Positions 28,940-30,603 are shown, numbered from the stretch's first letter. The stretch is DNA of 64,000 nucleotides from Candidatus Babeliales bacterium (GCA_963762115.1 CAVXJH010000003.1:320001-384000); one strand, 5' to 3'. Numbers and translations: made by a program. Notes: generated by a model from the letters alone, not told the origin.

Positions 28940-29506
28940 TTAATAGCCAAGGTAAGACCACCAAGAACGGCCCCGATTTGATGATTCAACATCTTCTAAC
29001 TCTTCTCTAGGGACTAAATACCATTCTTTTTCAATTTCTTTTCGTTCTCTTTTAAGTTTTTGATAAGGATCTTCTTTTAATGCCTTATTTTCAGTCACCT
29101 CTTGCAAACTGCTATCTGCAGTCACTGTTGCACCATACTTCAATAAAAGTTGAATGACACGAGGTTTGCCATAATAAGCTGCAAAAGCAAGTGGCGTCAA
29201 TAAGCTTGAATCAGGCATATTAGGATTAGCGCCAGCTTCCAACAATACCGCTACAATGCCTTCACTTACATCAGTTACAGGAATTGCAATAGCAGCCATA
29301 AGAGCTGCTTTGTTTCTTTGTTGTGCATTCGGATTTGCTCCTTTATTAAGCAAATTTTTTACAGCATATAAATCACCCTTCTTAATAGCAGTAAAAAGTG
29401 GCTCAGTTAACTGTTCATTAAATAAACGTCTTGATAAAGGCAACGCTACAAAGGTAATGCTCAGCAATCCTACAAAAAAAATATATTTTATTTTGATACT
29501 ATTCAT
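28940..29506 (-). CDS. Secreted ankyrin-repeat protein with C-terminal W-x-x-V motif
   Basis: GANPN ankyrin repeats, TPLAFAAYYG; start at MNSIK (29506) after AAGGA; EIEKEWYLVP. Confidence 0.9.
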   Translation of the reverse strand: MNSIKIKYIFFVGLLSITFVALPLSRRLFNEQLTEPLFTAIKKGDLYAVKNLLNKGANPNAQQRNKAALMAAIAIPVTDVSEGIVAVLLEAGANPNMPDSSLLTPLAFAAYYGKPRVIQLLLKYGATVTADSSLQEVTENKALKEDPYQKLKRERKEIEKEWYLVPREELEDVESSNRGRSWWSYLGY

Positions 29507-29508
29507 AA

Positions 29509-30039
29509 TTAATCCTTTTCTAATATAACCCATTCTTCTTCAGGTTGTTTTTCAATCAAACCTTCTTCAAATTCTTCAATAAGCTTTTGAATTGCTAACT
29601 GCTTTTGTTGTCTATTTTCAGCTTCTCGCCTTTCATGGTGTTCAAAAATATAATCAAGGCCTCTTTTTCCAAAACCATCAACAGCATTGATATCGCCACC
29701 ACGAGTACCTAAAATACTATAATATTCCAAATCACGAGACAGAGCATACGTGAAAGGTGTCATTTGATTGCCTGCTATCTTATTTGGATCCGCTCCCAAT
29801 CTTAGGAGCAACCTAACTAAAGGTGTTTTATAAAGCTCAATCGCTTTCATTAAAGCTGACACACCATCTAACTCTGCATCTGGACTAACACCATCAACTA
29901 TCAATTGATTTACTTGAGTTTCATCGCCAACCTCGATAGCACTAAAAAGTTCACTAATACGTGAATCATGATTATTCGCCTGAACGAGAGTTGCAGCACA
30001 ACACATTGTCATGCCGATTAATAAATATAATTTTTTCAC
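29509..30039 (-). CDS. Secreted ankyrin-repeat protein with C-terminal W-x-x-L motif
   Basis: Signal ending VQA-NN, GADPN, TPFTYA; ends PEEEWVILEKD. Confidence 0.9.
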   Translation of the reverse strand: MKKLYLLIGMTMCCAATLVQANNHDSRISELFSAIEVGDETQVNQLIVDGVSPDAELDGVSALMKAIELYKTPLVRLLLRLGADPNKIAGNQMTPFTYALSRDLEYYSILGTRGGDINAVDGFGKRGLDYIFEHHERREAENRQQKQLAIQKLIEEFEEGLIEKQPEEEWVILEKD

Positions 30040-30057
30040 AAGTACCCCTTAGGAAAT

Positions 30058-30603
30058 TTAATCAATCATAGTCCAAGGTTCTTCTGGTATATTAATTTCT
30101 TCAAATTCACCAGCAAGAAGATCTAACTCTGCATTTTTTCTTGCGTTTTCACGTTTTATTCTATCAAGATCACGTTGTTTAGGATCTACATTAAGATAAT
30201 CTTGCATTGTTTTACCAAATGCATCTTTCTTGCTTCCTTTACCGCCAAAACTAATTATCCGCTCCATTGCCGCTTCATTTCCAAGATCAGCAGCAAAAGT
30301 CAACGCGGTCATGCCATTACCAGCAATAAAATCGATTGCTTTCAAGGCGCTGGCTTTTTCAAGCAAATGTTCCAATGCCGCAATCTCTGCACGATAATTT
30401 GTATGTTCTATCTGATACATTATTGCTGTTTTTCCATTTTCTTGAGCATTCGGATTAGCACCCTTAAGTACTAAATCCTCAACCAATGTTGCACGATTTT
30501 GCACATTAGGCGTTCGAATAATTTTCAAAAGTTGATTATCAAGAACATTATTTGCTTGAATTCCTACAACAACAAAAAATATAAGTAAACTCAATCGTTT
30601 CAT
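30058..30603 (-). CDS. Secreted ankyrin-repeat protein with C-terminal W-x-x-I motif
   Basis: Signal ending IQA-NN, GANPNAQENGKTA, GMTALTFAA; ends GEFEEINIPEEPWTMID. Confidence 0.88.
   Translation of the reverse strand: MKRLSLLIFFVVVGIQANNVLDNQLLKIIRTPNVQNRATLVEDLVLKGANPNAQENGKTAIMYQIEHTNYRAEIAALEHLLEKASALKAIDFIAGNGMTALTFAADLGNEAAMERIISFGGKGSKKDAFGKTMQDYLNVDPKQRDLDRIKRENARKNAELDLLAGEFEEINIPEEPWTMID

Follow-up and report, generated by a model that had tools for sequence, protein, structure and literature searches.

Bacterial and viral ankyrin adaptors with F-box, PRANC or CaaX C-termini engage SCF ligases or prenyltransferases, pairing an ankyrin substrate-binding domain with a module for the host degradation or membrane machinery. 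PexRD54 of the oomycete Phytophthora infestans is a WY-repeat effector with a C-terminal AIM (PMC9642902); it carries an RXLR translocation motif, acts in a plant host, and has been shown to bind ATG8. RavZ, a Legionella protease that is delivered by type IV secretion and delipidates Atg8 (PMC8634866), is an effector of an amoeba-infecting bacterium and combines tandem LIR motifs with a membrane-targeting part. The LIR motif has an aromatic residue at position 0, where Trp is most favourable, Leu, Ile or Val at +3, and acidic residues at -1 to -3, while Ile, Leu, Val or Phe at +2 permit LC3 binding (PMC7615515). In the eukaryotic proteins FYCO1, AnkB, AnkG and FAM134B, for which complexes have been solved, an acidic residue at +7 can start a helix (PMC7615515). 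Verified LIRs include those of STBD1 (EEWEMV), TP53INP1 (DEWILV) and TBC1D25 (EDWDII) (PMC5119064, Table 1), and the authors of the xLIR pattern themselves describe it as unspecific (PMC5119064).

Every cultured member of the Babelota infects protists (PMC12172432), and one of them, Chromulinavorax, encodes 98 ankyrin proteins, 78% of which have signal peptides and whose function is described as unknown (PMC6561590). The three proteins considered here, A1, A2 and B, likewise combine a predicted signal peptide with ankyrin repeats in a small, ankyrin-rich genome; that report assigns no specific function or host target to such proteins, and the LIR-like tail is limited to a small subfamily. Like PexRD54, the trio would be a secreted repeat scaffold without enzyme activity whose C-terminus carries an acidic W-x-x-[ILV] kept in relatives, whereas, unlike PexRD54, the trio is bacterial, is built of ankyrin repeats, is presumably directed at a protist host, and has two motifs per protein; no homology is claimed. 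In contrast to RavZ, the trio has no catalytic domain and its genome has no VirB4-family match, and homology does not extend beyond the motif. The trio has nothing beyond the generic repeat in common with giant ankyrins, and orthology is not implied. Compared with the F-box, PRANC and CaaX adaptors, the C-terminal module would engage the autophagy branch. It is proposed, with a probability of roughly 0.55, that the three proteins are exported, enzyme-less autophagy adaptors whose tail would bind host Atg8 and whose ankyrin domain would bind a second host partner.

The window, which is the whole stretch of 64,000 nucleotides that was analysed, comes from a genome (G000) of 1.53 Mb with ~34% GC and 95% completeness. 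This genome contains 46 ankyrin ORFs, the majority with signal-peptide-like starts as called by our own heuristic for a hydrophobic N-terminus, and the bacterium likely lives inside protists. The three genes all lie on the minus strand: A1 (30058..30603) encodes 181 residues, A2 (29509..30039, GTG start) encodes 176, and B (28940..29506) encodes 188. Pfam Ank_2 scores above cut-off in all three (E 2.6e-6 for A1), and each has a hydrophobic, signal-peptide-like N-terminal segment by the heuristic score. A1 continues from this segment through ankyrin repeats and a charged helix to two LIR-like motifs. The longest ORF for gene B begins at 29533; however, the ATG at 29506 is the more likely start, since a Shine-Dalgarno-like sequence is present there and none at 29533, and since the resulting 188 residues match the length of the homologues. 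The gaps between the genes are 18 bases (A1-A2) and 2 bases (A2-B), and this spacing together with a Shine-Dalgarno-like site at each start is consistent with one operon. A promoter and terminator scan gave signal no better than chance. On one side, the trio is flanked by an integrase-core transposase and a gene that we take from its sequence features to be thioredoxin-reductase-like, and on the other by the rnpA region. The transposase (27782-28777, plus strand) is directly downstream of the trio and is missing at the syntenic site in G001, a genome of the same genus. No plasmid match was found.

The first-pass annotation had described acidic, LIR/AIM-like tails in three co-oriented ankyrin genes, and the motifs that it quoted (GE-FEEI...PEEP-WTMI, PEEE-WVIL, and EIEKE-WYLV with a terminal WSYL) are present in the three ORFs. 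In A1, the upstream Phe motif FEEI (residues 167-170, 30094..30105, minus strand) matches the xLIR pattern as GEFEEI and is followed by the terminal Trp motif WTMI (residues 177-180, 30064..30075, minus strand). The terminal Trp motif of A2, WVIL (residues 170-173, 29521..29532, minus strand), is a strict xLIR match as EEWVIL. The upstream F-x-x-I of A2 has been lost (it now reads FEEG), while the A2 orthologue P0282, which is 50% identical, has both motifs. In B, the Trp motif WYLV (residues 162-165) is followed by P-R-E-E, which places a Glu at +7 (29000..29023, minus strand), and the protein ends in the aromatic segment SWWSYLGY (28943..28966, minus strand), a candidate membrane-binding helix. 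The strict published xLIR pattern is thus matched by only 1/3 of the window Trp motifs, that of A2; A1 meets it through the Phe motif only, and the Trp motif of B fails by its Tyr at +1. The LIR/AIM-like reading stood up to the sequence-level checks described below, while its fit to the strict pattern was partial.

The frequency of such tails was determined with a strict tail motif that requires at least two Asp or Glu among the four positions preceding W-x-x-[ILV] within the last 30 residues. Six of the 1412 ORFs of the source genome carry it: 3/46 ankyrin ORFs, which are A1, A2 and B, 0/554 other ORFs with signal-peptide-type starts, and 3/812 others. The enrichment among the genome's ankyrin proteins that had been named as a check was not supported, and with 2/63 ankyrin ORFs from other Babeliales loci also carrying the motif, general enrichment among ankyrin proteins is rejected. 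Shuffling the last 60 residues of the three window proteins recreates the strict motif in 3.6%, 6.1% and 10.3% of cases. Recurrence in three genes, which the first-pass annotation had offered as its evidence, proved a weak argument, as A1, A2 and B are paralogues with pairwise identities of 26-32% and the recurrence is not independent. Because the strict motif was defined after A1, A2 and B had been seen, the weight is carried by out-of-sample homologues.

The two motif-bearing ORFs from other loci, L039 and L042, are unrelated Babeliales ankyrin ORFs that end in an acidic W-x-x-L with polar residues at +1 and +2. These tails are possibly independent LIR-like tails, or chance.

The family sample comprises 23 members with a median identity of 32%, nine from three Babeliales genomes and 14 further database proteins. 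The two relatives that bear the family, G001 and G003, are both Candidatus Babeliales. G001 has a syntenic trio, with 49% identity between A1 and its orthologue, and G003, which belongs to the same family and another genus, has its trio at a different site. The G003 trio is split between its two class A genes by a gene (L022:7251-8630, plus strand) that is presumably photolyase-like, judging from its sequence features. Across the order, the family was found in 3/261 genomes using full-length and tail-only profiles, where the full-length screen scored the best 12 candidates or fewer per genome. No family match was obtained in G004 (93% complete, genus of G003) or in G002 (64% complete). Profile searches added at least 14 proteins absent from the queries among the matches listed (in one case 120 of 229). 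The candidate pool was drawn by profiles that included tails, so tail-less members could be under-sampled, and the 23 rows do not amount to 23 independent tests since several of the database homologues are closely related to G001.

An HMM of the ankyrin part only, applied to 170 short database proteins, placed 20 family proteins (the 14 added proteins plus 6 copies of those from the genomes) at 98.9 bits or above and the 150 others at 70.4 bits or below. The tail motif is present in 20/20 of these family proteins and in 1/150 of the other ankyrin proteins. In other searches, a single-protein homologue search returned the query itself as the sole match, a search of 1.84 billion representatives was dominated by long ankyrin proteins with no family member in the best 150, a metagenome contig scan gave 9 weak, generic ankyrin loci, and a protein atlas gave generic ankyrin clusters only. 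As judged from these sequences, the motif is strongly conserved in a small, lineage-restricted family.

Conservation of the motif in homologs, on which the earlier claim depended, was borne out in 23/23 family members. Position 0 is Trp in all 23, and position +3 is Ile (11), Leu (8) or Val (4). Position +2 is hydrophobic in 23/23 (nine Ile, nine Leu, two Met, two Phe and one Val), and position +1 is Glu in 12, Thr in eight, and Val, Tyr and Ile in one each. Acidic residues are frequent upstream (-1: 15 Glu, four Pro, two Asp and two Gly; -2: 17 Glu; -3: 14 Glu), although these counts must be read with the strict filter in mind, which itself demanded two acids in four positions. There are 20 distinct hexapeptides among the 23 members. 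Ile, Leu or Val occurs at +3 of 33/35 tail Trp residues in the family as compared to 164/672 in the tails of the genome. An ankyrin-domain tree, which has long branches and some unsure placements, implies at least five changes at +3, all within Ile, Leu and Val.

These data bear on the possibility that the motif arose in an acidic tail by chance and was spread by duplication without selection. The paralogy of A1, A2 and B is compatible with such an origin, as are single-tail shuffle probabilities that range over 3.6-21%. However, Trp has been kept at a median identity of 32% while the adjacent tail columns vary, and in the class B protein of G003 the motif has been regained at a new site, where EEWTVI adjoins a Phe motif at the ancestral position. 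The restriction of +3 to Ile, Leu and Val and the family-wide conservation largely refute this explanation, which is barely credible. Such turnover of the motif, along with a Phe-to-Trp spacing that varies from 10 to 46 residues, is typical of linear motifs. Taken together, the comparisons of sequence indicate that the tail is under selection as a short linear motif and is not passively inherited.

The family divides into two classes, and class A and class B genes occur together in all three genomes. In class A (n = 14), the tail ends 5-12 residues past the Trp, and an upstream E-F-x-x-[IL] is found 10-46 residues before the Trp in 13/14 members, A2 being the exception. In the class A alignment (13 rows), E166, F167 and W177 are invariant and I170 is present in 12/13. 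Class B (n = 9) is characterized by Pro at +4 and Glu at +7 in 8/9 members, and in the class B alignment (8 rows) E161, W162, P166 and E169 are invariant. The class B motif is followed by an acidic stretch and then by a terminal segment in which S181, W183, Y185 and G187 are invariant (8 rows). A2 has a class A-like tail, yet its ankyrin domain clusters with class B on the tree. Both classes have class-specific conserved ankyrin residues.

The terminal WSYL of B, which the first-pass annotation listed beside WYLV, is better regarded as belonging to an aromatic C-terminal segment that class B conserves than as a simple second LIR. This segment is four residues shorter in gene B than in most homologues. 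The segment is moderately amphipathic: its hydrophobic moment is 0.41-0.71 in the eight class B proteins scored and 0.49 in the window copy, against a median of 0.37 and a 90th percentile of 0.60 across the genome. A moment of 0.55 with a hydrophobicity of 0.6 is reached by 4/8 class B proteins as compared to 2.4% of genome ORFs, with the window copy falling below these values. A membrane helix at the class B terminus is only moderately supported by this comparison.

The fit to the published LIR rules is close. An xLIR match is present in the last 45 residues of 20/23 members, with none in G000_B, P0004 and P0006, and by sequence the family tails closely resemble the verified LIRs EEWEMV, DEWILV and EDWDII. 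Class B additionally resembles FYCO1, AnkB, AnkG and FAM134B (PMC7615515) in its acidic +7 residue and may do so in the helix predicted behind it, but the class B helix is of low confidence and comes after a conserved Pro at +4. This feature also helps in weighing whether the tail might instead, or besides, be a FIR motif that binds the FIP200/Atg11 claw and recruits the autophagy initiation complex. The FIR consensus overlaps and nearly equals that of the LIR and requires an acidic residue at -1 (PMC7615515), where the family has Asp or Glu in 17/23 members. A FIR also takes Ile, Leu or Val at position 0, whereas the family has only Trp or Phe there, and a +7 Glu with a helix is a feature of the Atg8 site. 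The FIR explanation is accordingly considered highly doubtful.

Another eukaryotic receptor could be the target, such as the W-acidic site of kinesin light chain, an adaptin ear, VAP, Arp2/3 or SUMO. Adaptin ears recognize WxxF, PEX5 recognizes WxxxF/Y, and Arp2/3-type motifs have acidic residues at +1 and +2. None of these was found in the family: W-x-x-F/W, W-x-x-x-F/Y, and a pair of acidic residues at +1 and +2 each occur in 0/23 members. The presence of Asp or Glu directly after the Trp in 12/23 members would suit a W-acidic site, and EF-x-x-I loosely resembles FFAT. However, Asp or Glu at +1 is missing in 11/23, the Phe motif has Ile or Leu where FFAT has a small residue, and none of these receptors explains the strict Ile, Leu or Val at +3. 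Recognition by one of them is thus quite unlikely.

Structural information comes from AlphaFold single-chain models of A2 and B. The A2 model (mean pLDDT 86.7) contains the ankyrin repeats and a helix at residues 127-164, after which the Trp motif (W170) is found in coil (residues 169-176, pLDDT below 50), in a tail predicted to be disordered. The upstream Phe site of A2 is inside the predicted helix. In the B model, W162 sits where a low-confidence helix (residues 147-163) ends, and a second helix (residues 167-177, pLDDT below 50) comes after the motif. In both models the Trp motifs are outside the folded ankyrin domain, in low-confidence tails, so that the tail placement assumed by the first-pass annotation held. 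A bound LIR is normally extended, and the helical Phe site of A2 and the helix-end position of W162 in B, as modelled, speak against the LIR reading. A fold search with the A2 model returned ankyrin proteins only; together with Pfam searches of the trio, which also gave ankyrin matches only, no catalytic or protease domain was identified.

The models are also relevant to the idea that the tail works within the bacterium, either as a signal for export, for a chaperone or for a protease, or by packing against the ankyrin groove of its own protein or of a neighbouring paralogue. A Sec-type signal peptide alone guarantees the periplasm only, which is compatible with such a role, as is the co-occurrence of class A and class B genes in all three genomes. 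Yet the single-chain models of A2 and B leave the tail undocked from the ankyrin domain, and a general export signal, which should recur, was rejected on its absence from the 554 other signal-peptide ORFs. Moreover, on this view it would be a coincidence that six positions agree with the LIR rules. An intrabacterial function is considered improbable.

For passage out of the cell, the source genome offers two secretins, two T2SS-type ATPases and two Omp85 proteins. No VirB4-family (type IV) or FHIPEP-family (type III) match was found in this 95% complete genome. Elsewhere in the genome, two long secretin genes adjoin three ankyrin genes with signal-peptide-like starts (G000:C6:198832-211191), a possible export locus. 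C-terminal CaaX-like ends, mostly -CIIS or -CTLQ, are found in 6/46 ankyrin ORFs, 8/554 other signal-peptide ORFs and 4/812 other ORFs. Prenylation is a eukaryotic cytosolic reaction, and these ends, read from sequence, suggest prenylation by the host; their enrichment is an indirect hint that proteins of this bacterium with signal peptides enter the host cytosol. Two CaaX-like ORFs are located in the window, at 13365-14576 and 60015-61307 (both minus strand); the latter begins with a signal-peptide-like segment and contains WD40 repeats as well as a weak match to Skp1_POZ.

No Atg8-family gene scored over the cut-off in 41 genomes (the source and 40 relatives), and any Atg8 ligand would therefore be that of the host. 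Most of 66 giant-virus-type contigs that match a short motif (L064-L129) carry intact Atg8-like ORFs; many of these end at or near the C-terminal glycine, and one was confirmed as Pfam ATG8.

Based on these results, the proposed autophagy adaptors would act as follows. After Sec export, the proteins would pass through a secretin (type II-like) or leave in vesicles. The acidic W-x-x-[ILV] tail would then dock on Atg8 of the protist host, while the ankyrin domain or its groove would hold the second host partner or cargo. Class A proteins may bind bivalently via their Phe and Trp motifs. In class B proteins, the +7 Glu and helix would provide higher-affinity binding, and the terminal aromatic segment would attach the protein to a membrane. 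As a result, Atg8-coated membranes or cargo would be redirected, such that either a host defence factor is removed or membrane and nutrients are brought to the bacterium. A more elaborate version, put forward tentatively, is a cassette in which soluble, two-motif class A adaptors and a membrane-attached, high-affinity class B receptor would together mark chosen host proteins or organelle membranes for autophagy.

The same tails could instead serve as an Atg8 shield or sponge that occupies docking sites and outcompetes host receptors, with the ankyrin domain serving only to tether the protein to the bacterium or to its compartment. The presence of several motifs in one protein and of three paralogues in one genome favours avidity, and there is precedent in PexRD54, which outcompetes JOKA2 for ATG8 (PMC9642902), and in Plasmodium UIS3, which blocks LC3 (PMC8634866). 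On the other hand, the class-specific conserved ankyrin residues suggest defined partners, and a pure sponge would have no need of two conserved ankyrin classes. This alternative, which looks the same as the adaptor reading at the level of sequence, is considered unlikely. Binding of the tails to Atg8, a prediction from sequence that holds under sequestration as well as under the adaptor reading, is considered likely.

Among the literature matches listed, with subscription papers mostly outside their scope, no report linked Babelota or Dependentiae ankyrins to Atg8 or LIR motifs. Babelota are widespread protist parasites, and the family offers a specific and cheaply testable host target in Atg8. 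If the cassette version is true, the Babelota ankyrin arsenal would have its first specific host target in Atg8 and the trio would be an autophagy counterpart of the ankyrin/F-box effectors; under the adaptor reading, the bacterium would have converged on the PexRD54-like design of a repeat scaffold with a terminal AIM, without the enzyme activity of RavZ. The family would likewise allow a test of whether, in these bacteria, proteins with Sec signals get as far as the host cytosol. With 20 hexapeptides and with tandem as well as helix-extended forms, its conserved natural variants lend themselves directly to studies of protist Atg8 recognition, and should Atg8 binding fail, the tail would still be a strongly selected linear motif.

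Another repeat protein is encoded in the window at 33114-38888 (plus strand). It is 1924 residues long, begins with a signal-peptide-like segment and contains dozens of repeats in which N-G-T-F-S and paired cysteines abound; Pfam gave spurious low-complexity matches only. The N-G-T-F-S repeats resemble N-glycosylation sequons, and the C-terminus is likely a beta-helix.
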